This document shows, one piece after another, positions 1-14,932 of a DNA stretch of 64,000 bases. Each line of letters opens with the position of its first letter. Positions within the stretch are counted from its first letter, which is position 1. The translations under genes and the position numbers were made by a program. Below the pieces are notes generated by a model. It did not search any database. It saw only the letters and a list, made by a program, of their open reading frames with translations, and was not told the DNA's origin. The DNA is from an uncultured Solibacteraceae bacterium (GTDB taxonomy: Bacteria > Acidobacteriota > Vicinamibacteria > Vicinamibacterales > SCN-69-37): positions 732-64,731 of the forward strand of contig CAZAZR010000001.1 of assembly GCA_964489685.1 (NCBI GenBank), given 5' to 3'.

Positions 1-463
1 TGGGAAAGCTGGACCAGCGGTCTCGGTCCAGCTCACGGATCGTGAGCAGGCTCTGGTACCGGTGAACCCACGTTTCCGGATTGTGATCGTACTCGCCCCT
101 CACTCGGCCACCCCACGCTCCGATCGTCGGCCATGCATCGGCGATGCGCGCCGTCTCGACAAGGAAGTCGGGCGCCAGAACCGTGTCGTCGTCGACGAAG
201 ACGAGAATCTCCCCCCGCGCCTCGACGATGCCGCGCAGCCGTGCATTCGTGAGCCCGACCGTTCCCTCCTGCACTACTCGCGCACCGCTGTGCCAGGAGA
301 GGTCGCAGAACTCCGCCACAGGTGTGTGCGAAGCATTGTCGATGAGGATCAACTCCCAGGAGTCCTTCGGGGCGACTTGAGTGCGCAGTCCTTCAATCGT
401 TCGCCGCATGTGGTGGGGACGCGGATCCTTGGTACAGAGAATGACGGACTGGAGGCGGGACAT
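1..463 (-). CDS. Glycosyltransferase family 2 (3' end cut by window edge)
   Basis: Not in ORF track because it runs off the edge. Own translation from ATG (cat at 461-463): MSRLQSVILCTKDPRPHHMRRTIEGLRTQVAPKDSWELILIDNAS...EILVFVDDDTVL. This shows the GT-A N-terminal pattern and an acidic DDD motif. It is an obvious paralog of the next gene. Confidence 0.8.
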   Translation of the reverse strand, partial: MSRLQSVILCTKDPRPHHMRRTIEGLRTQVAPKDSWELILIDNASHTPVAEFCDLSWHSGARVVQEGTVGLTNARLRGIVEARGEILVFVDDDTVLAPDFLVETARIADAWPTIGAWGGRVRGEYDHNPETWVHRYQSLLTIRELDRDRWSSFP

Positions 464-471
464 CGATCGCG

Positions 472-1407
472 TCACTCGAATCTCCCTTGGACGAAATCTC
501 GCCGGGCCATCTTCAGCCCAGCCAGTTCGGCGCGACGGAGTCGTCGCCGAACTCTCGAAAGACCAAGTGAGCGGATGTGGTCGATGAACAGCCGCAGTCG
601 CGACGGAATGGGCGGTCGCTTGCTGCGGATTGACCAGAACAGCAACTCGGAGTACGCGGTGCACTCTTGCATCCGCTCGAGATACGCCAGGTCGGTGCGC
701 TCCGGAGGAATCAGGTGTGTCGCCACCAGTGCAGTAAAGCGGCCCATTCCGAGCCCCAGGTCGCACGCGCTGAAAGCGAGGTCGAAATCGTCATGACCCG
801 TGAGTTCACCGGGTCGGGGGCCCAGACGCCTGCGCAACGGCCGTGTGCTGACACCGTCGGCGTAGGCGAGCGCGACCCGCCTGCGCACGACGAGACCCAC
901 ACCGCAGGGCGCGGCCTTGAGCACCGGCAGGTTGGTCCAGCGGTTCTGCGGAACCTCCCGCAAGCTGAGCAGCCCCCGCACGTCATGAATCCAGTCCGGC
1001 GGCGTCTCCTCGAATTCGCCGACGACCGCTCCGCCCCACGCGCCCAAGTGAGGCTGCTCGGCGCCGATTTGAAGAGCACGCTCCAGATAGTCGCGGTTCA
1101 GCACATTGTCATCGTCCACGAAGACGAGGCTCTTGCCGGATGACTCCCGAATCCCGCATACCCGAGCAGGGACGAGGCCCGCGTCGTCCTCCCGGACGTG
1201 TCTTGCGTGGGGGTGCCAGGACAAGTCGAAGCGCGCTGCGAGCGGCGCGTCGGATCCGTTGTCGACGAGGAGGAGTTCCCAAGACTTTGGTGCGAGCGTC
1301 TGCGCCCGCAGCGCCTCGATGGCGCGCTCCAGATGGCGCGGGCGTGGATTGCGGGTGCAGACGAGGACAGAAATGTCCACCGCATGACCTGGTGCAGTCT
1401 GGCTCAT
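472..1407 (-). CDS. Glycosyltransferase family 2
   Basis: ORF 472..1557. I prefer the internal ATG at 1405-1407 (MSQTAPGHAVDISVLVCTRNPRPRHLERAIEALRAQTLAPKSWELLLVDNGS...LVFVDDDNVL), which matches the N-terminus of its tandem paralog. The upstream extension is Arg/Gly-rich and unprotein-like. Confidence 0.85.
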   Translation of the reverse strand: MSQTAPGHAVDISVLVCTRNPRPRHLERAIEALRAQTLAPKSWELLLVDNGSDAPLAARFDLSWHPHARHVREDDAGLVPARVCGIRESSGKSLVFVDDDNVLNRDYLERALQIGAEQPHLGAWGGAVVGEFEETPPDWIHDVRGLLSLREVPQNRWTNLPVLKAAPCGVGLVVRRRVALAYADGVSTRPLRRRLGPRPGELTGHDDFDLAFSACDLGLGMGRFTALVATHLIPPERTDLAYLERMQECTAYSELLFWSIRSKRPPIPSRLRLFIDHIRSLGLSRVRRRLRRAELAGLKMARRDFVQGRFE

Positions 1408-1534
1408 CGCGCGCTGTCTCCAGCGGGTACGCTGCACGTCTCGAGTCGACGACGAGCCGAATTGAGCGCCGCCCTGAACGATCCTTACACGTTTTAAGCC
1501 CCGCGCGAGCATCGCGGCGACGTCGCAAGCGAAT

Positions 1535-2401
1535 CTACCAGGCCGTCCGGCCGCCATCGACGATCAGGTTACTTCCGGTCATGTACGACGATGCGTCCGA
1601 CACAAGGAAGAGTACCGCAGCCTGGTACTCGTCGCGCTTCGCCATTCGGTCCAGCGGAATCAGGCGGGTGAGATTCTGCACGAAGTGCGGGTCGTGTCCG
1701 GCATGGACGCCACCAGGCGAGAGGGAATTGACACGGATACCCTTTGCGGCCCAATAGGTGGCCAAGTACCGGCTGAAGTTGATGACTGCCGCCTTGGTCG
1801 TGGCATACGCGATGGGCGTGTTGAACGGCTCGCCCGTGTGTGGGTTTCTCGCACCCTCGTAGATTCGGTGGTCCGGACTGATGGTCCCCACGTCGGACGC
1901 GATATTGAGGATCACCCCACACTGTTTGTCGACCATCACTTTCCCGACCGACTGACAGCACAGAAACATGCCCGTCAGGTTGACGTCGAGCGCCTTCTGC
2001 CACAACGCCAGAGGATACTCCTCGAACGGCGCGAAGTACTCCTTGGCAGAAAGCCCGCCGCCTCTCACCGTGAGCGCGGCGTTGTTGATCAGAATGTCGA
2101 TGCGGCCGAAGCGGGCGAGCACTGTCCGCGTCATCGCCTTCACGTCGTCTTTGTCGGTGATGTCTACTCGAATGCCAATCGATTCCACATGGTGATCGCG
2201 CGTGACCTCGGCGGCCGCCTCCAAGGCATGGTCGGCGATGTCGGCCAGTACGGCGTGGCCACCGGCATCGGCGATGGCGGCAGCGTGCTGACGGCCGAGC
2301 AGGCCGGCGCCGCCGGTGATGATCGCCACGCGTCCCGTCAGATCGAACTTGTCCAACACCGTCACGTTGTGTCCCCCTTCAGACCGCGTGGCGATCGCCA
2401 C
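1535..2401 (-). CDS. Short-chain dehydrogenase/reductase (SDR) family oxidoreductase
   Basis: TGRVAIITGGAGLLG (TGxxxGxG cofactor motif), NNAA, and catalytic YATTK (YxxxK). The start is uncertain, since the ORF overlaps the upstream stop by 23 nt. Confidence 0.85.
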   Translation of the reverse strand: MAIATRSEGGHNVTVLDKFDLTGRVAIITGGAGLLGRQHAAAIADAGGHAVLADIADHALEAAAEVTRDHHVESIGIRVDITDKDDVKAMTRTVLARFGRIDILINNAALTVRGGGLSAKEYFAPFEEYPLALWQKALDVNLTGMFLCCQSVGKVMVDKQCGVILNIASDVGTISPDHRIYEGARNPHTGEPFNTPIAYATTKAAVINFSRYLATYWAAKGIRVNSLSPGGVHAGHDPHFVQNLTRLIPLDRMAKRDEYQAAVLFLVSDASSYMTGSNLIVDGGRTAW

Positions 2402-3146
2402 CGGTGTCCGGATCAGGCCATCGGCCTTGTTGCAGCTTCACGAGCGCGGCCTCGATCGCCGGAATGTTGTCCAGGTAATCCAGTTCAAGGGCAGGCTCGC
2501 GCACCACAAATGGCAGGATGCGATCGCCGCACATCAGGTTCCGGTCAAGCACCACACGGGGCCGCACGATGTCCACGTACCCGTTCTGCCAGTACACCTC
2601 AGGCAGGCTCTGACGCGGCTGACAGTAGGCCTCCACGACGGACGGCAGAGAGAGAACGGGCTGAAGCAGACCATCCACCATGTGCCACATCTTGTACGGT
2701 GTCTGGGCCGGTTGACAGACGGAACGTAGCGAATCCGCGCCGGGGTGAGCCAGCATCAGTTCGATGGCCTGGTCGATCAGAGGCACTCGCCGAACGGGAC
2801 CCGTCGGCCGTAAGTGCACCACGCACTCGCACACATAACCCTCGTGTGCGCGCAGCCAAGTGAGGGCATGCCGGAACACGTCGAGATCAAGCGACAAATC
2901 CTGCGCAAACTCGGCGGGTCGAATGAAGGGGACCTCGGCGCCGTAGGCGGCGGCCACCTCGGCAATCTCGGGGTCGTCGGTGGACACAATCGTTCGAGTG
3001 ATATGGGCGGAGGCCAGCGCCTGCTCAATGGAGTAGGCGATGATCGGCTTGCCGGCAATCACCACGAGATTTTTTCTGGGAATGGATCGCGATCCACCCC
3101 GTGCAGGAATCAACGCCAGGACTTCCGGACGGGTATCAGGTGTCAT
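2379..3146 (-). CDS. Acylneuraminate (CMP-NulO/CMP-ulosonic acid) cytidylyltransferase family protein
   Basis: LALIPARGGSRSIPRKNLVVIAGKPIIAYSIEQA...IVSTDDPEIA is typical of CMP-NeuAc/CMP-Kdo synthetase-like enzymes. The start is chosen at the 40th codon (MTPDTRPEV), giving an ATGA overlap (3143-3146) with the upstream gene. Confidence 0.85.
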   Translation of the reverse strand: MTPDTRPEVLALIPARGGSRSIPRKNLVVIAGKPIIAYSIEQALASAHITRTIVSTDDPEIAEVAAAYGAEVPFIRPAEFAQDLSLDLDVFRHALTWLRAHEGYVCECVVHLRPTGPVRRVPLIDQAIELMLAHPGADSLRSVCQPAQTPYKMWHMVDGLLQPVLSLPSVVEAYCQPRQSLPEVYWQNGYVDIVRPRVVLDRNLMCGDRILPFVVREPALELDYLDNIPAIEAALVKLQQGRWPDPDTGGDRHAV

Positions 3147-4183
3147 TGGCCCAACTCCACGACCTGTCGTGTGTCCATCGACCGTTTTGCCGCCAGCGCT
3201 ACGCGCAGGCTGAGCGCCGCATCGGCCAGGGTGGCCACGGGCGTCTGTTCGCCTCGCACACACGCCAGGAAGTGCGCCATCTCGTCGAGAAAGAGCTGGT
3301 TGCGTTCAAAGGGCGCAATCGGGGCGAGTGCCACGGCAGTGCCGTCGCCGTCAAAAAGACGGAGGCTCGGTTCCCGCAGGTCCATCAGGATTTTTCCAGC
3401 GTCTCCGATGACCTGGCAGGTGCGGGACGCCGGCCGCTGAATGTAGTCCTGGTGCACGTGCACCGGGATGGCCTGCCCGTCCATCGTCACGTCCATCAGA
3501 ATACTTGCGGTGTCTTCCACATCGATCTCGAGCGGGCTCAGATGTCCCCCCACTGCGAAGACCCGCGTCGGTCGGCCAAAGAGCCAGCATGCATAGTCGA
3601 GCTCGTGAATCTGCGAGAGAATGACGCCGCCTCCCAAGTCCCGCCGCGACGCATACATCTGCCGGTAGTCCTCATACGGGTGCCAGCCTGGCAGGTATTC
3701 TCCTGCCTCGATGCGCACCGCCAAAATCCGGCCCACGACCCGCTGCTCGATGAGTGCATGGAGCGCGCGGAGGCATGGATGGTATCGGAGTTGGTATCCA
3801 ACAAGTGCCATCAGGCCGCGGGCCTTGACTACGTCGGCCAGCTCATCAATGCCATCGATAGTGTGAGACAGCGGCTTCTCTATAAAGAGGTGACTGCCAG
3901 CCCGAGCCGCAGCGAGGGCAACCGGCATGTGGAGGCTGGTCGGGTTACAGATGAACGTCACGTCAGGGCGCTCGGCCAGCGCATCGGTGAGATCGCTGAA
4001 GACGCGAACGTTGTACTCGGTCTCCAGATCACAGTTGGGCCTGATGTTCAGTCCGTCGGTCAGCACGTGCGAGAGCCCGCGGCTGCGATACGCCAGCACG
4101 GTGGTGTCGTCACCCATCAGAGCCCTGAGATTGCGCAGGTGGCGTTGGCCGACGCCACCGAGCCCGACCATCAGCGCTTTCAC
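3143..4183 (-). CDS. Gfo/Idh/MocA family NAD(P)-dependent oxidoreductase
   Basis: N-terminal Rossmann MKALMVGLGGVGQRHLRNL and the LFIEKPLSH (EKP) motif. It has 4-nt overlaps with both neighbours. Confidence 0.8.
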   Translation of the reverse strand: MKALMVGLGGVGQRHLRNLRALMGDDTTVLAYRSRGLSHVLTDGLNIRPNCDLETEYNVRVFSDLTDALAERPDVTFICNPTSLHMPVALAAARAGSHLFIEKPLSHTIDGIDELADVVKARGLMALVGYQLRYHPCLRALHALIEQRVVGRILAVRIEAGEYLPGWHPYEDYRQMYASRRDLGGGVILSQIHELDYACWLFGRPTRVFAVGGHLSPLEIDVEDTASILMDVTMDGQAIPVHVHQDYIQRPASRTCQVIGDAGKILMDLREPSLRLFDGDGTAVALAPIAPFERNQLFLDEMAHFLACVRGEQTPVATLADAALSLRVALAAKRSMDTRQVVELGQ

Positions 4184-4995
4184 AGTAACGTCCTGACGAA
4201 GCTCAAGTGGGCAGTGGCGACCTCAAGAAAATCACGTCCGAACGCCGTTTGCATGACTACCGGTCCCGCGTAACCTGCCTCACCGACTGCGGCAAAAAAT
4301 CGTGGGAAGTCCGCGTCGCCCTGACCCAGCGGAACTGTGGGACCACCCTTCGTGCGGTCCTTGACGTGGATTCCGCACAACAGCGGACCGAGTATTCGGA
4401 TATCAGCCGCGATGTCATATCCGCGGGCTGTTGCGTTTCCGGTATCGAAATAGACTCCCAACGCAGCGTGCTGCGCGTCACTGACGAGGTCCGCATATTC
4501 GGCAGCCGGCAGTTCGGTCTCGAGGCCAAGACGAATGTCGAAAGAAGCGGCCAGGTCCAGTGGCTCTTGAAGGTGTCGCAGTAGTTCCGCCTTTTCGTCG
4601 GCCGTCCGAAGTTCGGCCACCTCCAGCACAGGCAAGAGAACGGTCGTGGCGCCCAGCGCGGCAGCCTGGGTGATCAACTGCTTGAGTACGGCCACGCTTG
4701 CGGCGGACTCGGCTCCGGGGACGCGAAAAAATGGGTGCGCCATGAAGTAGTCGGCGCAAACTGAAGGCACCGTCACACCGGTCGTCGCCACGAGCGCGCG
4801 GATGCGTTCGATACCGCCGTCGATCCAGATCGGGTTGCGATCGAACCCCTCGGCCTCAAACAACCACTCAATGCTGTTGATGCCACACGCGTGTGCGTAT
4901 GCGAATTCCTGTTCCCAGGTGTGCCAGGGGAACGCCTGCACACGGTCCGACGCCGGCGGCGACAGCCGCCCCTGCATGATACCGACAGGATTCAC
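4180..4995 (-). CDS. Sugar phosphate isomerase/epimerase (xylose isomerase-like TIM barrel) family protein
   Basis: Pattern GINSIEWLFE ... RLGLETE ... GVYFDTGN ... GIHVKD is characteristic of the AP-endonuclease-2/xylose-isomerase-like TIM barrel fold. Confidence 0.7.
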   Translation of the reverse strand: MNPVGIMQGRLSPPASDRVQAFPWHTWEQEFAYAHACGINSIEWLFEAEGFDRNPIWIDGGIERIRALVATTGVTVPSVCADYFMAHPFFRVPGAESAASVAVLKQLITQAAALGATTVLLPVLEVAELRTADEKAELLRHLQEPLDLAASFDIRLGLETELPAAEYADLVSDAQHAALGVYFDTGNATARGYDIAADIRILGPLLCGIHVKDRTKGGPTVPLGQGDADFPRFFAAVGEAGYAGPVVMQTAFGRDFLEVATAHLSFVRTLL

Positions 4996-5462
4996 GCCGG
5001 GCTCCCGACTCCAAGGACAATGTCAACGGCCTCGGCCACCGCACCGTCACCGCCCTTGTGCAGCAACACGCGGTCCGCCGCGCGAATCGCCGACGGACTG
5101 GCATCGGCAGGCGCCAGGCCCAGTCCAGCGGCTGCCAGTGCATCGGCATCCCGTACCGAGTCGCCCACATAACAGACCTCGTCGAGCGTGACATGAAGTT
5201 CGGCGCAGAGGTTATTGAGTGCGCGGCCCTTGTCTTTCGCCCCTCGCCAGACATGGAGCACGCCAAGTCTCTTCACAATCTGATCAACCCAGGGCGAGTC
5301 TTCGCCGGTGACCAGGGCCACGGTCAGGCCCTGCCGATGCGCGTGAAACACCGCATCGATATCGCGGTACGAGACCGTCTTGAGTTCCCGTCCCGCGTCA
5401 TCGATGGTGACTGTGCCTGATGTCAGGACACCGTCGATGTCCAGAGCCAGCACCCGGATCAT
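4992..5462 (-). CDS. HAD-IIIA KdsC-type phosphatase (ulosonate/nonulosonate-phosphate phosphatase)
   Basis: LALDIDGVLTSG (DxDGV motif I), VALVTGEDS, KDKGRAL, and VGDSVRDADAL (motif IV). At 156 aa its size is typical of Kdo-8-P/KDN-9-P phosphatases. Confidence 0.85.
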   Translation of the reverse strand: MIRVLALDIDGVLTSGTVTIDDAGRELKTVSYRDIDAVFHAHRQGLTVALVTGEDSPWVDQIVKRLGVLHVWRGAKDKGRALNNLCAELHVTLDEVCYVGDSVRDADALAAAGLGLAPADASPSAIRAADRVLLHKGGDGAVAEAVDIVLGVGSPA

Positions 5463-6328
5463 GCCTGCACGCGCCTCAATTTGCGCATGATCGGCACTTC
5501 GCTGTCGTAGACGCGCTTGGCTCCGTCACCCATGGCCGTCTCGATGGCCCTGATGTCCTTCACCAGCCGCGCAAAGCCCTGCGGCTCAACCGACGCAGCC
5601 TGATCGCTGCCCCACATGGCCCGATCCAGGGAGATATGACGTTCCACCATGCAGGCGCCAAGGGCCACGGCGGCCAGCGTGGTGCTGAGCCCGACTTCGT
5701 GTCCCGAATATCCGACCGGCAGTCCGAAGTGTTCCTGCAGTCGCGGAATCGCGCGGAGGTTAATCTCCTCGAGTCGCGTCGGATAGGTGCTGGTGCAATG
5801 CAGCAGGATCAGCTCTTCGCCCTGCACGGTCTTCACGCCTTGGTCCACCTGCTCCAGAGAACTCATGCCCGTGGAAAGCAGGATTGGCCTACCCGTGTGT
5901 CGATGGTGCTGAAGCAGTGCGGTATCGGTTAGCGATGCTGACGCGATCTTCCAGCACGGGGGATCGAAGGCCCTCATGAAATCGACCGACGCCTCGTCCC
6001 AGCAGGACGCAAACCACAGCAGGCCGAGGCTGCGGCAATACGCGTCGATCTCGGCATATTGCGATGCGCCGAACTCCAGACCCCGTTTCAGGTCGCCGTT
6101 GGTCGTACCGAACGGGCTCTCGCGAGGGCGGGCCAGTTCGTCGGCCGAGTACACCGTGTCCACCGTGCGCTTCTGGAATTTGACAGCGTCACAACCGGCC
6201 GAGGCCGCCGCCTGCGCCAGCTTCTTCGCCACCTTCACGTCTCCGTTGTGGTTGATGCCGATCTCGGCGACGATGAAGGTGGGGTGCCCCGGGCCAACGA
6301 TCCGGTTTCCGATCCTGACGCCCTGCAT
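5459..6328 (-). CDS. NeuB-family (N-acylneuraminate / nonulosonate synthase-like) PEP-condensing synthase lacking the SAF domain
   Basis: GPGHPTFIVAEIGINHNGDVKVAKKLAQAAASAGCDAVKFQKRT ... GYSGHEVG ... VERHISLDR. The protein ends at 289 aa, directly after the TIM barrel, with no C-terminal SAF/antifreeze-like domain. Confidence 0.9.
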   Translation of the reverse strand: MQGVRIGNRIVGPGHPTFIVAEIGINHNGDVKVAKKLAQAAASAGCDAVKFQKRTVDTVYSADELARPRESPFGTTNGDLKRGLEFGASQYAEIDAYCRSLGLLWFASCWDEASVDFMRAFDPPCWKIASASLTDTALLQHHRHTGRPILLSTGMSSLEQVDQGVKTVQGEELILLHCTSTYPTRLEEINLRAIPRLQEHFGLPVGYSGHEVGLSTTLAAVALGACMVERHISLDRAMWGSDQAASVEPQGFARLVKDIRAIETAMGDGAKRVYDSEVPIMRKLRRVQA

Positions 6329-6343
6329 AGAAGTCCTATCGTG

Positions 6344-7333
6344 TCACTGTTTCGCGTACTGATCGAAGATCCACTGATAGGTCTGTTCCAACCCGCTGCG
6401 CAACCGGATGGACGGCTCCCAACCCAGAAGGCTCTGAATCCTGGTGTTGTCGGAGTTCCGTCCGTTCACACCTTTAGGCGCCGAAAGGTTGTGGCGGCGC
6501 TCGAGCGTCACGCCGGCGATCTCCTCGACGATATCTACCAGACCGTTGATGGTGACCAGTTCGCTCGATCCCAGGTTGATCGGCTCACGGATGCCGCTGG
6601 CCAGGATGGCCTGCGCGCCATACACGCAGTCGTCGATGTACTGAAATGACCGCGTCTGTTCTCCATCGCCCCAAATCTCGATGGTATTCGTTCCGCGCAC
6701 CTTGGCGTCGATCACTTTTCGGCAGATCGCGGCCGGTGCCTTTTCGCGCCCACCATCCCAGGTTCCGTGGGGCCCGTACACGTTGTGCAGCCGGGCCACG
6801 CGGGTGTCGAGTCCCAAATCCTCGCGGAAGTGCCGGCACATGCGCTCGGAGAACAGTTTCTCCCAGCCGTAGCCGTCTTCCGGCATCGCCGGATAGGCGT
6901 CCTCTTCCTTGAGGGGGACGACGTGCGCGTCGTGTTGTTTGTCGGCGTTATAGACGCAGGCCGATGACGCGTAGAAGAAGCGTGAGACGCCTGCCGCCAC
7001 CGAAGCTTCGAGCATGTGGGTGTTGATGAGCACCGAGAGCATGCACAGGGCCTTGTTGTGCTCGATGAAGCCCATGCCGCCCATATCGGCCGCGAGTTGG
7101 TAGACGGTGGCAGCGCCGGCGCAAGCCATCTCACAGTCAGCCTTGCGCCGAAGGTCCGCCACCACATTGTCAGCGCCGGGAAACACCTGCCACCATCCCC
7201 TGATCGGTTTGATGTCCACGGAGCGGACCGTGTGGCCCTTGCGAAGCAGGTCGGCGACCAGGTGACCGCCGATGAAGCCGCCGCCACCGGCGACTACGAT
7301 GAGATCAGCCACCCAGTTAGCATACCCTCTCAC
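6344..7333 (-). CDS. NAD-dependent epimerase/dehydratase, GDP-mannose 3,5-epimerase-like
   Basis: VVAGGGGFIGGHLV (GxxGxxG), YGWEKLFSE (YxxxK), and LHNVYGPHGTWDGGREKAPAAICRKV. The last segment closely resembles the GDP-mannose 3,5-epimerase signature region as I recall it. Confidence 0.8.
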   Translation of the reverse strand: MRGYANWVADLIVVAGGGGFIGGHLVADLLRKGHTVRSVDIKPIRGWWQVFPGADNVVADLRRKADCEMACAGAATVYQLAADMGGMGFIEHNKALCMLSVLINTHMLEASVAAGVSRFFYASSACVYNADKQHDAHVVPLKEEDAYPAMPEDGYGWEKLFSERMCRHFREDLGLDTRVARLHNVYGPHGTWDGGREKAPAAICRKVIDAKVRGTNTIEIWGDGEQTRSFQYIDDCVYGAQAILASGIREPINLGSSELVTINGLVDIVEEIAGVTLERRHNLSAPKGVNGRNSDNTRIQSLLGWEPSIRLRSGLEQTYQWIFDQYAKQ

Positions 7334-8508
7334 CGAGGGGACGACAAAAGGGCAGTGGCAGCAGCACCGGCATCAGCGGGAGAGATGCTCTGGATACAAT
7401 GCGCCCCTTCCGACACACAGGCGAAAGTGCACGGCGGCAGCGGTGCGATCGGCTGCAGGACCTTGTGGGGAGTGGTCCCTGGGCCGAACCGCTCCGGAGC
7501 GTTGACGTGATCGGGATCACCCGCCCCCGGGTGACACGAGATCTCGATCACAGGGACGCCACCGGCAGCCGCCAGGTGCATCGGGCCGGAGTCATTGCCG
7601 ACGAACAGCGTGCAGCGTTTCAAGATGGCGGCGGTCTCGCGGAGGGTGGTCTGACCGACCGCGTTGATGACGTGGCCACCGAGGCTGTTGCGCAATTGCT
7701 CTCCCAGTGCTCGGTCGGCCTCACCGCCCACGACCACAACTGTGCCACCGTGTGCGCGCAGAATGTCCGCTGCCGCCGTGGCAAAGCTGGCAACAGGCCA
7801 GCGCCGACGGGGACTGGTCGCGCCTGGAGCAATGGCGAGCAAAAACCCCCCGCGCTCGGCGCCGTGGGCGGCGAGGAACTCCGTCGCAAACCGTTCATCA
7901 TCCTCATTCAGCCAGAGCTCCAGCCGGTCGTCCGCGGTGGTGCCGCCGAGCGATCGGATGAGGTTCAGGTTTCGTGCCGCCTCGTGCCGCTCCGGCATGG
8001 ACGCAGGCATATGCGTGAGCAAGGCACGGTCCCGGTACCCCAGACGCCAGCGGGCTCCGCTCTGAAACACGAGCATCGAAGCGAAGCGCGGGTCGTGGTC
8101 CCACCTGGGAGCAATTCCCAGATCGAATGCTTCAGTGAACTGGTCGCGGGCAAAGGCACGGGCGTGAGCGAGTGCCCTGAACGCTGAAGTCGAAGCATCG
8201 TGGTCGTAGGCCAGGACCCGATCAACGTAGGGGCAGAGCGCTACGAGGTTGAAAAGTTCCGGCCGTACGACGAGTGTGATCGAGGCGTGAGGCAGGTTGC
8301 GGCGCAATTCTCTCAGGAACGGCGTGGTCAGCACCATGTCCCCGATTTCGTCGAGCCTGACAACCAGGACACTCCGAACGGCAGCCAGAGCAGTGGGCTC
8401 CTTGCCGGCGCGGTGTCGGTGCGGCCGCAGGCGATCGCCCAGAAGCAAGGCCCCGCACGCCAGCCGGCGGTCCACGTCACGAAGGAAACGCCGCAGGCGC
8501 CCTGTCAT
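7330..8508 (-). CDS. Glycosyltransferase family 9 (heptosyltransferase-like)
   Basis: VLVVRLDEIGDMVLTTPFLRELRRNLPHASITLVV and the C-terminal LFVGNDSGPMHLAAAGGVPVIEI are GT9 hallmarks. Confidence 0.8.
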   Translation of the reverse strand: MTGRLRRFLRDVDRRLACGALLLGDRLRPHRHRAGKEPTALAAVRSVLVVRLDEIGDMVLTTPFLRELRRNLPHASITLVVRPELFNLVALCPYVDRVLAYDHDASTSAFRALAHARAFARDQFTEAFDLGIAPRWDHDPRFASMLVFQSGARWRLGYRDRALLTHMPASMPERHEAARNLNLIRSLGGTTADDRLELWLNEDDERFATEFLAAHGAERGGFLLAIAPGATSPRRRWPVASFATAAADILRAHGGTVVVVGGEADRALGEQLRNSLGGHVINAVGQTTLRETAAILKRCTLFVGNDSGPMHLAAAGGVPVIEISCHPGAGDPDHVNAPERFGPGTTPHKVLQPIAPLPPCTFACVSEGAHCIQSISPADAGAAATALLSSPR

Positions 8509-10184
8509 GGCCTCAGATCGATGAAGCGCGCGCCGGAGATGAACGCCGCACAGAGCTTCTCGATGGTGGCATCGCCTCCAGGCGCCAGCGCGTCGAAACT
8601 CGTGAGGGCAAACCGCTTGTCGGGCGGATGGAGCAGTGGCAGGCGCACCTCGTGGCGGAAGAACCAGAGGTACGCGAACCGTCTCGCCATTTCGATCGCG
8701 TCTGCATGCATCGTCCCTCTACCGCTACCGTCGGCAAGCAGTTGTCCCATGTGGTCGGCAGATTCGATGTCGAGCGTGAAGCCTTTGCCGCGATACGTGA
8801 CGGCGCCGGCAATCCACGGCGTGATGCCGCGCATGGCCAGCTCCAGGCCAAATCGCGATGCGTAGACGATATTGATGTCGGCCATCTCCGAGAGCGTGTA
8901 CGAGTTGATCGGGTTGTCTCCCTCGACAATGTGAATGTTTGGCAGAAGAGGCTGGAATCGCGCGCGGATCTCAGGTCCGACGGGCGAGCGCGATTGAAGG
9001 TCCGGCGGCACCATCTTTTCGGCCGGATGGGCGCGCACGACAAGGTCGATCTCCGGATGGTGTTTCGCATACCGCACGAGCGCGAAGAGCCACTCGAACA
9101 TGCTCTGGAAACCGACGTCGCGATCGATTACCGCAATGTCCCACGAAGTATTAGTAAAGGCCGCCACCAGTCGAGCGCCCGGGCGCAGTCCCAGTGCGGC
9201 GCGAATTGGCCCTGGTCCGCTGATCGGGTTGGTGTTGTAGGGAAACGGCGTATTCCTGCTGCGCGACCAGAGATCGAGGTGGGCGTCCAGTCTCGACGCT
9301 TCGGCCGGCGTCAGCGCCCGGTCGCGTTCGGTGACCCAGATGTCGTCGAGCGGAATTTCGGTGGCAGGGCGGTCGTGGCTGAACATCAGGCCATCCGGAT
9401 GCGTGGCGGTGCCGTCCCACGTGACCACTCGGATACCGCGCTGTCGGGCGATCTCGACGACGCACGCGGTGTTCAACGTCCGGCCGCTGCAGACGCCCAG
9501 GATGTCGGGTTTCACGTCGGCCAGCCAGCGCTGGGCGATCCATGTGTAGAGAATGCCGCTCACCAGCCAGCGTCTGTAGGCCGGGTCGTGGCTCGGGTCG
9601 AAAACGAACCCGCGGTAGTAGCGCTGCAATTCCCGTCGGGCATATGTGCCGACGGGGACGTCGTCGATGCGTAACGTCGTCAGCGCGTCATCGGGCGTCT
9701 CTCGCACGATCGATTCGGCGCGGTCGAGGTCCGGTGTCGCAATGTACCGGCTTGACCGGGCGTAGGTGAAGCCGAAGGCGTCTTCGTGGCGTGAAAAGGA
9801 TCCGATACAGACCGCGCAGGGAGGTCTGGTCTTCGGTCCAAGGTTGAGTTCGCAGAGCGGCAGAAGGCCGTCGCACAAGATGCCGTGGACGTCATGGCCC
9901 CTGAGGACGAGAGCTTTCGCCAGTCCGTATTCGACAGGGGAAAAGTGGTGCAGGCTGTAAAACGCGACCTTCTTGCGACCGGCGAATGTGGCATTCTGGT
10001 GTATCAGAGCCGCGATTCGGCTCTGCTCGTGCAGCCGAAGCTTGCGCACCGGTCCCGCCCAATCGTAGGTTCCGAGCAGGGTTCGCTTCGCGGCCTTGAG
10101 TTGGAGTTGCAGCACCGTCGGCAGGCGGTACAGCGCCTGGCGCAGGAGCGAGTTGCCCCGCATCACCACATGGCTACCGTTCAT
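8505..10184 (-). CDS. Capsule polysaccharide biosynthesis protein, KpsC/KpsS-like (putative CMP-ulosonic acid transferase)
   Basis: DLVVRAHPAEKM (R/K-x-HP motif) and NSYTLSEMADINIVYASRFGLELAMRGITPWIAGAVTYRGKGFTLD match the Capsule_synth pattern (S-x-G-h-E-A ... G ... Y ... G-h-T-x-D). It is a paralog of the adjacent gene. Confidence 0.65.
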   Translation of the reverse strand: MNGSHVVMRGNSLLRQALYRLPTVLQLQLKAAKRTLLGTYDWAGPVRKLRLHEQSRIAALIHQNATFAGRKKVAFYSLHHFSPVEYGLAKALVLRGHDVHGILCDGLLPLCELNLGPKTRPPCAVCIGSFSRHEDAFGFTYARSSRYIATPDLDRAESIVRETPDDALTTLRIDDVPVGTYARRELQRYYRGFVFDPSHDPAYRRWLVSGILYTWIAQRWLADVKPDILGVCSGRTLNTACVVEIARQRGIRVVTWDGTATHPDGLMFSHDRPATEIPLDDIWVTERDRALTPAEASRLDAHLDLWSRSRNTPFPYNTNPISGPGPIRAALGLRPGARLVAAFTNTSWDIAVIDRDVGFQSMFEWLFALVRYAKHHPEIDLVVRAHPAEKMVPPDLQSRSPVGPEIRARFQPLLPNIHIVEGDNPINSYTLSEMADINIVYASRFGLELAMRGITPWIAGAVTYRGKGFTLDIESADHMGQLLADGSGRGTMHADAIEMARRFAYLWFFRHEVRLPLLHPPDKRFALTSFDALAPGGDATIEKLCAAFISGARFIDLRP

Positions 10185-11889
10185 GGACGGAACTGCCTCC
10201 AGGCTGGGGCATCAGGAAGTCTTCAGCCGACGGATCGCGGAGCCAATCGGTGAACGCGGCGACGCGTGGCTCCAAGCGACAGGCGTCTGTAAGGCTCATG
10301 TCGGTGGCCATCAGTGCCGTGTTTAACGCCGGTTCGAGGGCCAGCGGTCTGAGTACGAACATTCCATACGCGAATCGTTCAGCCAGTTCCCGACGGGCCG
10401 CCGACATGGGCGGGATGTCCTGAATGCGACGCACCCGATCAAGATACTGCTGCGTCGAGTCGGAATCGATGGTGAAACCGCGCCGGTCATATCGGCCCGT
10501 TCCGCCTGTGAGCACCTCAATCCCAAGACTTGCGGCCTCCAGACCCACCGTGCCACGAACCGTCAGGCAGTAGTCCATCACGCCGAACAGGGCGATGGTG
10601 CTGACCCCACTGTCTGGTGGCACAAGCACGACGTGCGACGGCAGCAACCCAAGCTGTTGACGGATGGCGGCGATCTCGATCGAATCGGTTCCATCCTTCA
10701 CCCTCGCGCTCTTGCCCATGTTGACCGGATGTACTCTGACAACCCAGTTCACGCCCGGGTTGTCGCAGGCGGCTCGAACGGTTTCCACAAGCCAGGTCTG
10801 GTAGTCGGCAAAAAGATCCTCGCCCCACGAAAACGACGCGTCCCACGGGACGTGCGGAAAGATGAACGCCGTCCTTCTGGCGGGATCCAGCCCGAAGCGG
10901 GCCCGAAGGTCCTCTGGAGCCACGGCGATGCGAGGGTTCCCCCTGGTGGGGACGCCCCACCAGTCACCCTGTTCGTAACACGCCCGCACTTCGTGCACGA
11001 GTTCCTGCCGATGAGCGGGCGTCCAGGCCATGTGCTGGACCTGTCGCCATGACGCATCCGAAAGGGAGCTTGGGTGCCGATGCTGCGATGTCTGCGAATA
11101 GCGCTTCAACAGCAGGGCGTCACGCCTCGGAGCCCGGTACGCGGCCACCACAGTGCCGCCACGAGCCAGGCTGGCGTCAAACAGTTCCCGCTTCGGGGTG
11201 TATTCCATTTCGTACGAGACCGTCATGGTCGGCGCCAAACGGTCGAGCGCCTCGCCCGCGTGCGTTGCGGCGGCCAGAGCGTCGGCCAGGTGGGAGATCA
11301 GTCGCGGGCCCCGCGCTTCACCGTCGAGGTCGAGCAGTCCGACTTGCGATGAGCGAAGCGTCATTGATAGCGCCGACCGTCCGACGCGCACGCCACGGAA
11401 CTCGAGGCTCAACAGCGCGCGTAGCGACGTGCACTGACGAACCATGGCCTCGGCCTGGCCGAGGAAACGCTCCGCGCCGATCGTGGGCCAGACTTCGATG
11501 ATACTGACACCGGCCAGTTCGTAGTAGGGCCTCAGAAATTCTTCGCTCTTCCTGAGGAGCAGCACCGTGGGGGTGTACCCCGCCTCGCGAAGGAGGGTGA
11601 CAAGCATGACCTGCGCTTCCGGTGAACGACCGATGCGTCCAAAGACGACGGCTGTCTTTCTGTCCTCGGTGCTGGTCCGTACTGCTGCCGATCGGGCCTC
11701 TGCCAAGCGGAGGCCGTGCATGGCGGCGAACTGCTGGAAGTGTCTTTCCTCAGCGACGCGGCGCCGACGGTCGTGCATGGAGACAAAACGGAACAGCCTC
11801 CGCCCCAGTGCGCGGAGCGATCTCACGAAATCGAGCATGCCCGCCGAGGACAGGCGGTTGCGTAGACGCGTGCTTCTGTTCGTCCTCAT
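10174..11889 (-). CDS. Capsule polysaccharide biosynthesis protein, KpsC/KpsS-like paralog
   Basis: NWVVRVHPVNMG and VSTIALFGVMDYCLTVRGTVGLEAASLGIEVLTGGTGRYDRRGFTID align motif-for-motif with the 8505..10184 product. Confidence 0.65.
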   Translation of the reverse strand: MRTNRSTRLRNRLSSAGMLDFVRSLRALGRRLFRFVSMHDRRRRVAEERHFQQFAAMHGLRLAEARSAAVRTSTEDRKTAVVFGRIGRSPEAQVMLVTLLREAGYTPTVLLLRKSEEFLRPYYELAGVSIIEVWPTIGAERFLGQAEAMVRQCTSLRALLSLEFRGVRVGRSALSMTLRSSQVGLLDLDGEARGPRLISHLADALAAATHAGEALDRLAPTMTVSYEMEYTPKRELFDASLARGGTVVAAYRAPRRDALLLKRYSQTSQHRHPSSLSDASWRQVQHMAWTPAHRQELVHEVRACYEQGDWWGVPTRGNPRIAVAPEDLRARFGLDPARRTAFIFPHVPWDASFSWGEDLFADYQTWLVETVRAACDNPGVNWVVRVHPVNMGKSARVKDGTDSIEIAAIRQQLGLLPSHVVLVPPDSGVSTIALFGVMDYCLTVRGTVGLEAASLGIEVLTGGTGRYDRRGFTIDSDSTQQYLDRVRRIQDIPPMSAARRELAERFAYGMFVLRPLALEPALNTALMATDMSLTDACRLEPRVAAFTDWLRDPSAEDFLMPQPGGSSVHER

Positions 11890-11896
11890 CGCCGAC

Positions 11897-13699
11897 TCAC
11901 GAACGCGTCACGAATTGGGCAAAGGCTGAAGAGGTGGCTCGGAGTTCTGCCAGGGCACCGATGGCCGTCACACGGCCTCGGTCGAGCAGTACCACACGGT
12001 CACACGCTTCGAGTGTGGTCAGCCGATGGGCGATGAGCACAACCGTGCGATCACCGCTGAGGGAGCGGATCGCCTCCATGACGGCTTCTTCGGTCATTCC
12101 GTCCAGCGCGCTGGTAGCCTCGTCGAAGACGAGGACAGTGGGCCGCCGATACAGTGCACGGGCGATCCCGATTCGCTGACGCTCACCCCCGCTCAATCGC
12201 ACGCCTCGTTCCCCGACGACCGTGTCATAGCCTCGGGGCAGGTTCTGAATGAACTCGTCAATCTGGGCCAGCCTGGCGGCTTCTTCCACCGCGGCGTGGT
12301 CGATTCGGGCGGGCGGCAGCCCGAAGGCAATGTTTTCTGAGACGCTGACATTCGCGAGAAAAATGTGTTGGGCGACGTAGCCGACCTGGCGTCTCCAAGC
12401 GGACATGGAACCGGGCGAGAGGGGCACGCCATCGACGGTCATCGAACCGGTGTCGGGTTCGAAGAGCCCGAGCAGGATGTCGGCGAGTGTGCTTTTGCCA
12501 GCGCCAGTTCGTCCGATGAGTCCGATGCTTTCTCCTCGCCGGACGTCGAGGGTGATACTGGACAACGCGGGGCGGGAAGCCCCAGGGTACGTGAAGGTCA
12601 CGCCGTTCAGCGAGATTTGCCTGCAAAGAGTGAGGTTGGCAATTTGTTCTACGAGCACGGGCGGCCGGGCTCCGGCCCCGGTCCCGAACCAATCAGCGTG
12701 CAGCGCCGTGAGCGCCGGACGTCCATATCGCACGGAGACTGCGGTCGAGTAGATCTGCTGGAAGCCCGGCAGCAGCCGGTAGCCCACGAAGGAATACAGC
12801 GCCAAAGTCGGAATTGCCGAGGCCGCGCCAGTCTCGCTCTCCCCCAGCAATACCAAGGTCACGATCAGGATGCCGCCGATAGTGATGGTCTCGAGCAGAT
12901 GACGTGGCAGCAACTGCCACAGCCTCTTCTTCACGCTCACTGTCGCTACGCGCTTGGATGCGTCGGCAAAGCGCGAGATGACAGTCTCACGTCGGTCAAG
13001 GACGATCAGCTCCTTGATGCCGCCAAACGCCTCATGGCTGGTTGTCAGGCCATCATGTTCCGCATCACGAGACTCGTCGGCCAGCTGTGCCTGCTGCCGG
13101 CGAGCGAGTCGAAACACCGCGAAATAGGCTCCACCAAGCGTCGTCATTGCGGCGGCTGCGATGGCCGGGCTCTGAGCCGCCAGCAGCGCGATCAGGGCGA
13201 CCACCGCGATCACGCTCGAAACTCCGGACATGAGGGGCAGCAGAATGCCCCCGGTTACGCCTGATACGTCCCTATTGATCGCCCTCATCAGTGACGGCGC
13301 GTCACGCCTGATATGGAATGCGTACGGCGCGAGCAGGAAGCCCCGGAGCAGGCCCGCCGCCAGGCGATGGTGGATCCGTGCTTCGAACCGGTACTGCAGC
13401 CAGGAACTCCAGACCTTCGCGGCGTTTCCGAGCGCCACCATGGCGGCCGAACCGAGCCCAGCCCAGATTACGGTATCTCGCCAGGTGACGGCACCGACCG
13501 TGTCGGCCAACACCTGGAGTGCCGGGTAATTGGTCAAGGCGTCTGAGTTGACCACGAGAGCAATGAACGGCAGGATCGAAGCGACCCCGAGCGCTTGAAG
13601 GCCCGCCGCGATCAATGATGCCAGCAGCACCCATACGAGACGTCGCCGCTCTCTGCCGGACAGCAGATCGAGCAAATGCCGGGCGGCCTCGGTCAACAA
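11897..13699 (-). CDS. ABC exporter, fused permease/ATPase (MsbA-like type I exporter)
   Basis: N-terminal 6-TM region, Walker A GRTGAGKSTL, signature LSGGERQRIGIARAL, and Walker B VLVFDEATSALD. Confidence 0.9.
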   Translation of the reverse strand: MLTEAARHLLDLLSGRERRRLVWVLLASLIAAGLQALGVASILPFIALVVNSDALTNYPALQVLADTVGAVTWRDTVIWAGLGSAAMVALGNAAKVWSSWLQYRFEARIHHRLAAGLLRGFLLAPYAFHIRRDAPSLMRAINRDVSGVTGGILLPLMSGVSSVIAVVALIALLAAQSPAIAAAAMTTLGGAYFAVFRLARRQQAQLADESRDAEHDGLTTSHEAFGGIKELIVLDRRETVISRFADASKRVATVSVKKRLWQLLPRHLLETITIGGILIVTLVLLGESETGAASAIPTLALYSFVGYRLLPGFQQIYSTAVSVRYGRPALTALHADWFGTGAGARPPVLVEQIANLTLCRQISLNGVTFTYPGASRPALSSITLDVRRGESIGLIGRTGAGKSTLADILLGLFEPDTGSMTVDGVPLSPGSMSAWRRQVGYVAQHIFLANVSVSENIAFGLPPARIDHAAVEEAARLAQIDEFIQNLPRGYDTVVGERGVRLSGGERQRIGIARALYRRPTVLVFDEATSALDGMTEEAVMEAIRSLSGDRTVVLIAHRLTTLEACDRVVLLDRGRVTAIGALAELRATSSAFAQFVTRS

Positions 13700-13729
13700 A
13701 GACGTCGGTTTCGGGGCGTCACGCCCAAC

Positions 13730-14932
13730 TTACCGCTCCTTCCAGCGAGTAAGCACCAGGCGCGGCCAGTCCGTGACGGGCCTACCGTGAACGATCGACC
13801 GTACCCTCCGGGATCGAAGCAGCCACTTACGCGCAGCAAGGCCGAGCGTGTCAAAGAGGACCGTCGGCAGAATGTAGGTCACGCGACCAGCAAACATCAA
13901 AAATCCAGGAAAACCTGGACGGCCGCCGGGGCCGAAGTCCTGACGCCGGGCCGGCGCGACGACCAAGCGGGTGTCACTCAAGCCCCAGGTGGCACCGTTC
14001 GGGTTGATCGCGTCGGGCTCAGCAAACGGCAGATTCGGATTAACTTTGCGATGGGTAGACGTTTTTCGAACGCTCCACGGATTGTAGTGCTCGAGATGGT
14101 AAAAATCGTAATTGCACATCTCGCCCAGATCGACCATCGGGTACTTGGTCAGGAGGCGGCGGCTCATGTTGGTCTCCATGGCGTTCATGTAGATCATCCG
14201 CTCATCGTATCCGCCGCATTCATTCCACACGTCCCGACGCAACAGCCAGATTCCAACCGCCGCCTCATAGAAGGGGCTTTTGGAGCGCCAATTCTCCTTC
14301 TTGAGCCACGGCCCGAACCACCGAACGAAGTACTCGACGCTCGAGGGGGACGGGCAGCACGCAGTGAACCTGTAGTTGACGTATTTGACGTTCGAAAACC
14401 CCATCATGAGAGGTTCGGGAATCGGCAGCGTTCCGTCGAGGCAGGCGAAGAAGGTCCGCAGGAACCGTGTTCCGACGAGCGTGTCCTGGTCAATCCTCCC
14501 GATGAACTGACCTGTCGATCGTCTCGCCGCCGCATTCAGGGCAATGACCTCGGCGAATGGGCTGTCACGTTGGAGTTCTGCCGCGAGCGCAGGCGGCACA
14601 TGGACGAACGAGGTCAGGCGGGCTGCCGCCGGACAGAGGTCAAGGACCTCCCGTAGGGGCGCGGAACTTCCCCAATCGCTGACCACTACCTCGATGTCAC
14701 TGGCCCTGCCGATGTCTTCGACATTCTTCGCGACAAAATTCAACGCTGTTTGGAGCCGCCAGCGCGAATCGCCCATGTAGTTGTCATTGCGGGAACAGAG
14801 AATCAGGGAAAGGGCAGGTGTCTTGGCCGAGACCCCCAGATCAGCTTGACCGGGACCCGGATCACCGCTGAAACTGGTATCAACCATTGCTGTGGAATCA
14901 GTGCTGCGCGTTCGAAACGAATCGACGCTCAC
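13730..14932 (-). CDS. Hypothetical protein, possible GT-A-like glycosyltransferase
   Basis: The long ORF has good codon bias. LSLILCSRNDNYMGD...IEVVVSDWGS resembles the N-terminus of GT2-like enzymes, but I do not recognise the rest. Confidence 0.5.
   Translation of the reverse strand: MSVDSFRTRSTDSTAMVDTSFSGDPGPGQADLGVSAKTPALSLILCSRNDNYMGDSRWRLQTALNFVAKNVEDIGRASDIEVVVSDWGSSAPLREVLDLCPAAARLTSFVHVPPALAAELQRDSPFAEVIALNAAARRSTGQFIGRIDQDTLVGTRFLRTFFACLDGTLPIPEPLMMGFSNVKYVNYRFTACCPSPSSVEYFVRWFGPWLKKENWRSKSPFYEAAVGIWLLRRDVWNECGGYDERMIYMNAMETNMSRRLLTKYPMVDLGEMCNYDFYHLEHYNPWSVRKTSTHRKVNPNLPFAEPDAINPNGATWGLSDTRLVVAPARRQDFGPGGRPGFPGFLMFAGRVTYILPTVLFDTLGLAARKWLLRSRRVRSIVHGRPVTDWPRLVLTRWKER

Follow-up and report, generated by a model that had tools for sequence, protein, structure and literature searches.

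A SAF-less NeuB cassette in an uncultured acidobacterium as a probable phosphosugar route to a CMP-activated Kdn-type ulosonic acid

Which sugar is made by an operon in which a NeuB-family synthase stands beside a KdsC-family phosphatase, a cytidylyltransferase and three further enzymes of redox and epimerase type? The question is raised by a 64,000-nucleotide stretch of DNA, hereafter the window, from an uncultured Solibacteraceae bacterium (assembly GCA_964489685.1, contig CAZAZR010000001.1, positions 732 to 64,731), in which an unbroken run of 14 minus-strand genes extends from position 2 to 14932. From the operon, the remainder of the genome and related loci in other species, we conclude that the run probably encodes a phosphosugar route to a cytidine monophosphate (CMP)-activated 3-deoxy-2-ulosonic acid of the Kdn (2-keto-3-deoxynononic acid) type, together with machinery that would place this acid in a surface glycan exported by an ABC protein.

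The run was delimited by the coordinates of its open reading frames (ORFs) and by the junction sequences, and families were assigned by Pfam, NCBIfam and PDB sequence searches. Start and stop codons overlap by 4 nt at 8505-8508 (ATGA), 7330-7333 (GTGA), 5459-5462 (ATGA), 4992-4995 (GTGA), 4180-4183 (GTGA), 3143-3146 (ATGA) and 472-475 (GTGA), the two KpsC-like genes overlap by 11 nt at 10174-10184, and the remaining junctions are short spacers. A first-pass annotation of this DNA had listed the overlaps beginning at 7330, 5459, 4992, 4180 and 3143, all of which are seen in the junction sequences, while those at 8505-8508 and 472-475 are additional. Our domain calls also agree with the gene content that it gave, namely a GT9 glycosyltransferase, a homologue of GDP-mannose 3,5-epimerase (GME), NeuB, a HAD phosphatase, a TIM barrel, an oxidoreductase, a cytidylyltransferase and a short-chain dehydrogenase/reductase (SDR). 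The operon thus stands, but its extent had been drawn too narrowly, for upstream it also takes in the genes of an ABC exporter, of a 400-aa protein and of two KpsC-like proteins, and downstream two GT2 genes.

The synthase covers the whole NeuB barrel (PF03102 profile positions 3-241 of 241, E 6e-78). It nevertheless falls below the cut-offs of both curated models, with 261.7 bits against a required 399.65 for the NeuB/LegI equivalog TIGR03569 and 215.7 against 340.25 for PseI (TIGR03586). The match to TIGR03569 runs from model position 1 and ends at 276 of 329, and therefore the C-terminal SAF (antifreeze-like) domain is absent; the 289-residue reading frame closes with a stop codon that overlaps the start of the next gene. 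The best PDB match is 6ncs, a solved SAF-less NeuB of 290 aa (E 1e-39; the clade is about 40% identical).

Proteins of this kind are abundant. In a search of metagenome proteins, where the family is about 288 aa long, all 8000 scored candidates had an E-value of 0.001 or better and the best 120 were 70-84% identical to the window synthase. Homologues occur in at least 584 species genomes, and the best 80 of these (62-72% identical), which served as our comparison set and of which 51 loci have full flanks, belong to at least ten phyla, including Chloroflexota, Acidobacteriota, Nitrospirota, Peregrinibacteria, Gemmatimonadota, Cyanobacteria, Myxococcota, Planctomycetota, Pseudomonadota, Omnitrophota, Verrucomicrobiota and Actinomycetota. 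In none of these 80 does the C-terminal extension exceed 30 aa, in contrast to paralogues at or below 44% identity, which have a further 70-100 residues. A quick maximum-likelihood tree (IQ-TREE), with PGAP-named neuB and pseI genes from plasmids as proxies for proven enzymes, contains a branch (SH-aLRT 91) that sets all SAF-less sequences apart from the named neuB and pseI; a Nonomuraea row (L112) with a very long branch stems from faulty ORF extraction and is disregarded. The placement of the synthase outside the bona fide NeuB/LegI and PseI enzymes, which the first-pass annotation had anticipated, is thus borne out by scores and tree alike. SAF-less NeuBs also cluster, as environmental sequences, in a large-scale phylogeny of nonulosonic acid synthases, where no function was given to them (PMC8208679).

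A route in which synthase and phosphatase act by way of Kdn 9-phosphate is experimentally established (PMC6200933). In the window the synthase gene overlaps that of a KdsC-family phosphatase by 4 nt and the two genes are neighbours in 35 of the 51 full-flank loci, which supports the sugar-phosphate condensation route proposed for this operon at first pass. The phosphatase gives 101 bits with the model of the Kdn 9-phosphate phosphatase BT1713 (NF058599), short of the cut-off of 180, and matches KdsC (2e-26) and BT1713 (5e-25) in the PDB. Its Glu54 and Arg65 align with Glu56 and Lys67 of BT1713 (3e81), while KdsC has Arg at the first position; among the phosphatases of related cassettes Glu occupies the first position in 51 of 51 and Lys or Arg the second in 50 of 51. 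A 2009 study by Lu and colleagues (JBC) reportedly described these two residues as the markers by which Kdn 9-phosphate phosphatases differ from Kdo (3-deoxy-manno-octulosonic acid) 8-phosphate phosphatases.

A KdsC-type phosphatase domain also adjoins a SAF-less NeuB gene on a plasmid of Azospirillum thermophilum (L108, 9859-10944), where a 361-aa 'HAD hydrolase family protein' consists of an N-terminal cytidylyltransferase-like piece fused to a C-terminal KdsC-type HAD, an arrangement that recalls the animal CMAS-type fusion.

Could the operon nevertheless belong to an ordinary pathway to N-acetylneuraminic (Neu5Ac), legionaminic or pseudaminic acid, with precursor genes elsewhere in the genome? 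Close homologues of the synthase are named 'N-acetylneuraminate synthase' in their sources, and three DegT-type aminotransferases are encoded elsewhere in the assembly, a soil Acidobacteria metagenome-assembled genome of 4.3 Mb in 300 contigs that is 99% complete. Against this stand the sub-threshold, SAF-less synthase in its separate clade and the phosphatase, which has no role in any of the three routes. Moreover, the only UDP-GlcNAc 2-epimerase in the assembly (a single PF02350 Epimerase_2 protein) is the non-hydrolysing WecB, with 219.6 bits for TIGR00236 against 59.5 for NeuC, and no second NeuB was found there, the weak second match being a 3-deoxy-arabino-heptulosonate 7-phosphate (DAHP) synthase. 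The lack of UDP-GlcNAc-processing genes, described at first for the window, therefore extends to the whole assembly. A complete canonical set of kdsA, kdsC, kdsD and kdsB is present on contig C13 (kdsA 371.6 bits), and the operon synthase is a PF03102 protein, not one of the KdsA type (DAHP_synth_1). Thus, given the separate kds set and the lack of NeuC and of a second NeuB, the operon represents neither the Kdo pathway nor a Neu5Ac, legionaminic or pseudaminic pathway with distant precursor genes, the latter a reading that we regard as very improbable. The combination named beforehand as fatal to the first-pass view, a synthase nested within the Neu5Ac, legionaminic or pseudaminic synthases and precursor genes elsewhere, was looked for and is not what we found. 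With Kdo served by its own genes, no NeuC, and a phosphatase with Glu and Lys/Arg at the two positions, a phosphosugar route to a CMP-Kdn-type acid is therefore the best reading.

As a separate observation on this genome, one DegT-type aminotransferase (C52:2738-3690) is matched as two fragments that differ in reading frame (profile positions 7-249 and 280-359), possibly through a frameshift or an assembly error.

The cytidylyltransferase completes, with the synthase and the phosphatase, a gene set of the Kdn 9-phosphate type within the one operon. It scores 120 bits with the PseF model TIGR03584, below the cut-off, and its PDB matches are CMP-Neu5Ac synthetases (6ifd, 3e-30; 9ftb, 4e-27), with KdsB at just 1e-9. 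Of the three remaining enzymes, the TIM barrel is closest to the L-ribulose-5-phosphate 3-epimerase UlaE (3cqh, 5.8e-12). The other two, a Gfo/Idh/MocA oxidoreductase (GFO) and the SDR, have counterparts on an Azospirillum thermophilum plasmid, in a locus with genes named LegB, LegC and NeuC by PGAP. There an SDR, a cytidylyltransferase, a 311-aa protein and a nucleotidyltransferase follow one another, which matches the order PtmA-LegF-PtmF-PtmE listed for loci of Plesiomonas, Vibrio and Campylobacter (PMC4481668), where PtmA is a protein of SDR size (254 aa) and PtmF a 326-aa oxidoreductase (Table 5 of that paper). The window proteins are 42% (SDR), 34% (cytidylyltransferase) and 35% (GFO, with the 311-aa protein at the PtmF position) identical to this trio, and the window SDR is 47% identical to an SDR of the TIM/SDR module of that locus. 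GFO and SDR are homologous to genes that flank LegF, and therefore both come from families that habitually accompany nonulosonate cytidylyltransferases; for these two of the 'three extra tailoring enzymes' of the first-pass annotation the description can be refined accordingly. Judged by family, the combination of a dehydrogenase, an enolising epimerase and a reductase suggests that one or two stereocentres are inverted via a keto intermediate.

To ask which of the genes belong together, we mapped the window proteins onto the 80 loci of the comparison set by tblastn, counting as neighbours the genes within 7 kb of NeuB. Six genes, encoding NeuB, the HAD phosphatase, the TIM barrel, GFO, the cytidylyltransferase and the SDR, occur together again in 17 of these 80 other species genomes, from Chloroflexota, Myxococcota and Omnitrophota, so the arrangement is not due to chance. 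Among the full-flank loci the SDR is as frequent a neighbour as the phosphatase (35), followed by the TIM barrel and the cytidylyltransferase (30 each) and the oxidoreductase (17). GT9 is near the cassette in none of the 80 loci and GME, at 45% identity or more, in three. These two genes lie outside the sugar cassette and travel with the two KpsC-like transferase genes (Kps1 and Kps2): in a locus of a same-genus genome (L121, G016:C3:515500-535499) the GME homologue is 87% identical and adjoins the Kps and GT9 genes, with Kps1 at 75%, GFO at 69%, Kps2 at 62% and GT9 at 60%. NeuB there is 55% identical and NeuB, phosphatase, cytidylyltransferase and SDR, at 35-55%, are encoded on the opposite strand, with no TIM barrel among them. 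A NeuB homologue of at least 55% identity is present in only four of 18 congeners, and 60% is exceeded in none; the window NeuB and cytidylyltransferase are closest to versions from Chloroflexota and Pyrinomonadaceae. By these comparisons the locus is a mosaic, in which a glycan backbone retained by vertical descent (Kps genes, GT9 and GME) is joined to a sugar cassette, and the same-genus locus points to replacement of the cassette within the genus.

The mosaic bears on the proposal, made at first pass, that NeuB receives an L-sugar from the GME-like enzyme. The protein is a full-length GME homologue, with about 300 bits over residues 12-328 to the solved plant enzymes 8sg0 and 2c59. However, the sugars that GME yields are linked to GDP, and a nucleotide-sugar hydrolase is lacking; the scarcity of GME near other cassettes and the contrast between GME and NeuB identities in the same-genus locus speak against such a supply as well. 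The separate origin of backbone and cassette therefore removes its basis, and we have abandoned it. The enzyme probably provides GDP-L-galactose or GDP-L-gulose as a separate donor for one of the transferases. Neither a type I ManA nor a bifunctional GMP/PMI was found in the organism's own genome although the operon encodes a GME.

If a CMP-activated acid is made, which enzyme would use it? Kps1 alone has no Pfam or PDB sequence match, and Kps2 reaches 18.8 bits against a cut-off of 20 for PF05159, the family (GT107) of the retaining beta-Kdo transferases KpsC and KpsS. In a profile built from ten sequences (Kps1, Kps2 and eight homologues) the motifs R-x-HP and G-x-E are invariant, and its top four PDB matches, the only solved ones with E below 0.01, are all KpsC, with HP(D) and S-x-G-x-E-A aligned. 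An AlphaFold (AF2) model of Kps1 (pLDDT 75.6) gave KpsC beta-Kdo transferases as the top four after VIA re-ranking (Z 14.6-14.9, root-mean-square deviation 3.9-4.7 A over 270-283 residues), compared with 9-10 A for generic GT-B folds. The modelled protein thus has a KpsC-like modified GT-B fold with the HP and S-x-G-x-E motifs. Of the 80 loci, 11 have Kps homologues next to the cassette; at locus L008 a 40% identical homologue of the ABC exporter lies beside the cassette and a 54% identical homologue of the 400-aa protein adjoins ABC and Kps2 genes. Proteins of PF05159 neighbour nonulosonic acid modules in Acinetobacter and Escherichia coli (PMC4487303). As natural users of a CMP-sugar, Kps1 and Kps2 are candidate transferases for the acid.

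The analysis shows which genes are present, how the operon is built, to which families its products belong, that the cassette recurs and that it stands apart from the Kdo, Neu5Ac, legionaminic and pseudaminic machinery; all substrates, the sequence of the redox reactions and the length of the carbon chain are inferred, and the pathway would proceed as follows. The SAF-less NeuB would join phosphoenolpyruvate (PEP) to an aldose phosphate, in the simplest case mannose-6-phosphate or one of its stereoisomers, possibly D-glycero-D-manno-heptose-7-phosphate; the KdsC-type phosphatase would remove the terminal phosphate; and the NeuA/LegF-type cytidylyltransferase would form the CMP-sugar. GFO, the UlaE-like TIM barrel and the SDR would constitute an oxidising, epimerising and reducing set that changes one or two stereocentres, with the sugar phosphate as its target ahead of condensation or the acid once it has been formed. 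The two KpsC-like transferases would then attach the acid to a lipid-linked acceptor, GT9 and the GT2 enzymes would extend the glycan with the help of GME-derived GDP-L-galactose, and the MsbA-like ABC protein would export it. For the window cassette we tentatively favour a nine-carbon product of the Kdn type, at slightly less than even confidence; Kdn- and Neu-type acids are frequent in environmental prokaryotes and higher-carbon acids are rare (PMC8157484).

Several observations weigh against this assignment. The NeuB clade also occurs, among the related loci, in other contexts that lack the phosphatase or the cytidylyltransferase, and therefore a single substrate for the whole clade is an assumption. 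A mannose-6-phosphate isomerase is not recognisable in the genome, where a 131-aa cupin (C6:19599-19976) is a weak candidate, and GmhA was not found in the 300-contig assembly, which leaves both precursors without a secure source in the genome. GFO and SDR resemble PtmF and PtmA, which a 2009 study by Schoenhofen reportedly assigned to the supply of amino-sugar phosphates, so that the product could be aminated. Finally, a GmhA-like SIS_2 gene of 190-210 aa lies within 7 kb of NeuB in 24 of the 51 full-flank loci. The last two points each lead to a different product.

An aminated product would be a sugar of the neuraminic acid type made by a 9-phosphate route, with GFO and SDR acting before condensation, as PtmF and PtmA would, to give the amino-sugar phosphate. 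The identities to the PtmF, LegF and PtmA positions of the Azospirillum locus given above fit this, as does the agreement of sizes and annotations with Table 5 of PMC4481668, and same-genus relatives keep GFO, SDR, cytidylyltransferase, phosphatase and NeuB without the TIM barrel. However, no aminotransferase, amidotransferase or N-acetyltransferase is encoded in the cassette here or in the 17 six-gene loci, and for two oxidoreductase folds an epimerisation via a keto intermediate is the more natural role. What PtmA and PtmF do biochemically, moreover, reportedly goes back to a single study. We therefore consider amination improbable.

The SIS_2 gene suggests instead a ten-carbon homologue of Kdn, for which GmhA would provide D-glycero-D-manno-heptose-7-phosphate and NeuB would condense this with PEP to a 3-deoxy-dec-2-ulosonate 10-phosphate, to be dephosphorylated and CMP-activated. 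The cassette-adjacent SIS_2 proteins match solved GmhAs (E 1e-49) better than DiaA, with catalytic and zinc motifs aligned, and reach 175 bits with TIGR00441, the level of the housekeeping GmhAs of the genus (165-182 bits). In five of five SIS_2-bearing genomes tested no RfaE-type heptose kinase was found, and therefore the GmhA-like product seems destined for the cassette and not for ADP-heptose. Nor does the missing GmhA of the window organism mean that heptose is unavailable, a notion that we rejected: 18 of 19 congeners have GmhA and the remaining genes of the ADP-heptose pathway, HldA (two copies), GmhB, HldC, WaaC and WaaF, are present on contigs C146 and C26 (L090, L091), with all five on C146, for which reasons its lack is almost certainly an assembly gap. 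CMP-ulosonic acids of ten carbons have mass-spectrometric support in Magnetospirillum (bioRxiv 10.64898/2026.04.20.719630).

Nevertheless, SIS_2 is absent from the window operon and from the assembly, and three of nine genomes without a cassette-adjacent SIS_2 have no GmhA at all, one of them a complete 4.33-Mb chromosome whose NeuB is 66% identical. The chemistry of GmhA would equally convert fructose-6-phosphate to mannose-6-phosphate. The rarity of higher-carbon ulosonic acids in surveys (PMC8157484) contrasts with the abundance of the NeuB clade, the ten-carbon acid of Magnetospirillum is a diamino sugar, unlike the product expected of the cassette, and our literature search found no natural dec-2-ulosonic acid. 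A ten-carbon product is thus unlikely for the window, and the Kdn-type acid remains our preferred reading. It is conceivable, if rather doubtful, that the cassette is a route to an undescribed sugar, either a Kdn with inverted stereocentres or, where GmhA feeds the pathway, its ten-carbon homologue, which the KpsC-like enzymes would polymerise or cap in environmental bacteria from many phyla.

The coordinates and family evidence for all genes of the run are collected in Table 1, in which some starts differ from those of the longest ORFs. The cytidylyltransferase begins at ATG 3146, and the SDR at GTG 2365, which is preceded by the Shine-Dalgarno sequence AGGGGGA. In the last gene, which exits the window towards the end of the contig, the PF00535 match begins at residue 107 of the longest ORF.

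Table 1. Genes of the minus-strand run, in order of transcription, with the evidence for each assignment
Feature	Position in window	Strand	Evidence
400-aa protein at the head of the run, family unknown	13730..14932	-	no Pfam/NCBIfam match below 0.01
MsbA-like ABC exporter (transmembrane domain fused to nucleotide-binding domain), first large gene	11897..13699	-	PF00005 7.5e-32, PF00664 3.6e-11
KpsC/KpsS-like glycosyltransferase paralogue 2 (Kps2), 571 aa, candidate ulosonic acid transferase	10174..11889	-	weak PF05159, E 0.0012
KpsC/KpsS-like glycosyltransferase paralogue 1 (Kps1), 559 aa, candidate ulosonic acid transferase	8505..10184	-	fold comparison
GT9-family heptosyltransferase-like glycosyltransferase	7330..8508	-	PF01075 4.3e-21; TIGR02195 73 bits, below cut-off
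GDP-mannose 3,5-epimerase (GME) homologue, 329 aa	6344..7333	-	PDB 8sg0 E 1e-89, 2c59 E 2e-88
SAF-less NeuB-family PEP-condensing synthase, 289 aa	5459..6328	-	PF03102 262 bits
KdsC-family HAD phosphatase, 156 aa, second paralogue of the genome	4992..5462	-	TIGR01670 105.6 bits
Xylose-isomerase-like (AP_endonuc_2) TIM barrel, 271 aa	4180..4995	-	PF01261 1.8e-29
Gfo/Idh/MocA NAD(P) oxidoreductase (GFO), PtmF-like, 346 aa	3143..4183	-	PF01408, PF22725, PF02894
CMP-nonulosonate-type cytidylyltransferase, CTP_transf_3, 255 aa	2379..3146	-	PF02348 2.7e-18
Classical SDR, PtmA-like, 276 aa	1535..2365	-	PF13561 1.7e-49
GT2 glycosyltransferase a, 361 aa	472..1557	-	PF00535 3.7e-15
GT2 glycosyltransferase b, start probably GTG 475 (GTGA overlap)	2..475	-	PF00535 4.6e-16

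Relatives of the synthase were also met in other settings. In Chloroflexia a third NeuB homologue (42-43% identical; L016:18840-, L027:16260-, L029:5751-, L031:16258-) carries a C-terminal extension of about 370 aa, giving fusions of about 630 aa. In Terriglobia, Bryobacterales, Planctomycetota and Hydrogenedentota (L039, L045, L056, L061, L062, L071, L075, L080, L082, L085 and others) a NeuB-HAD pair at 63-66% identity is followed by a 600-aa acetolactate-synthase-like thiamine pyrophosphate (TPP) enzyme, an FkbM methyltransferase and a GT2, and a cytidylyltransferase is missing. An enzyme of the TPP type acting on a 2-keto acid suggests that the ulosonate is decarboxylated there, which would amount to a two-carbon extension to a 2-deoxy sugar in place of CMP activation. 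On the Methylomagnum ishizawai plasmid pRS11DPr1 (L106, 4886-13557) a 55% identical SAF-less NeuB and a HAD are accompanied by a split transketolase, a class III aminotransferase, an SDR, LplT, a GNAT N-acyltransferase and a lysophospholipid acyltransferase, a module that looks like one for lipid-linked use.

How does the window operon compare with systems that are already understood? Its closest parallel is the CMP-Kdn pathway of Bacteroides thetaiotaomicron (Kdn 9-phosphate synthase BT1714, phosphatase BT1713 and CMP-Kdn synthetase) and Prymnesium parvum, which follows the same logic of synthase, KdsC-family phosphatase and cytidylyltransferase (PMC6200933); the operon, however, adds the TIM barrel, Gfo/Idh/MocA and SDR enzymes, and its phosphatase stays below the BT1713 cut-off. 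It shares with the PtmA-LegF-PtmF loci of Campylobacter, Vibrio, Plesiomonas and Azospirillum a clustered and homologous trio of SDR, cytidylyltransferase and Gfo/Idh/MocA protein but, unlike legionaminic acid loci, lacks LegB, LegC, LegH, LegG and PtmE and pairs a SAF-less synthase with a phosphatase; the roles of PtmA and PtmF are themselves poorly established. The Kdo pathway (KdsD, KdsA, KdsC, KdsB), with KpsC/KpsS of group 2 capsules, likewise joins an aldose phosphate to PEP, uses a KdsC-family phosphatase and proceeds through CMP, and here too KpsC-like GT-B transferases and an ABC exporter are found. In the window, by contrast, the synthase is of the NeuB family, the Kps-like proteins fall below the PF05159 threshold and the exporter is MsbA-like rather than KpsMT. 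The animal Neu5Ac 9-phosphate route (NANS, NANP, CMAS) has the same condensation of a phosphohexose with PEP, dephosphorylation and CMP activation, whereas NANS retains its SAF domain, the animal phosphatase is from another HAD subfamily, and the window has no N-acetylmannosamine supply. The SAF-less environmental NeuB group (PMC8208679) and 6ncs share the domain architecture of the synthase, and neither function nor gene context was assigned to them there. Pathways of this kind are thus known, from Kdn synthesis in Bacteroides and Prymnesium, and the cassette, set apart by its redox and epimerase enzymes and its KpsC-like partners, represents a widespread but uncharacterised variant.

Sialic-acid-like sugars shape the recognition of microbial surfaces, and mass-spectrometric surveys have reported acids of the Kdn and Neu type in many environmental bacteria with no matching gene set. 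Assigning the product of this cassette would allow a large block of 'N-acetylneuraminate synthase' annotations to be corrected and would give the family of KpsC-like transferases a new donor sugar; the monosaccharides known to bacterial glycobiology could gain a new member.

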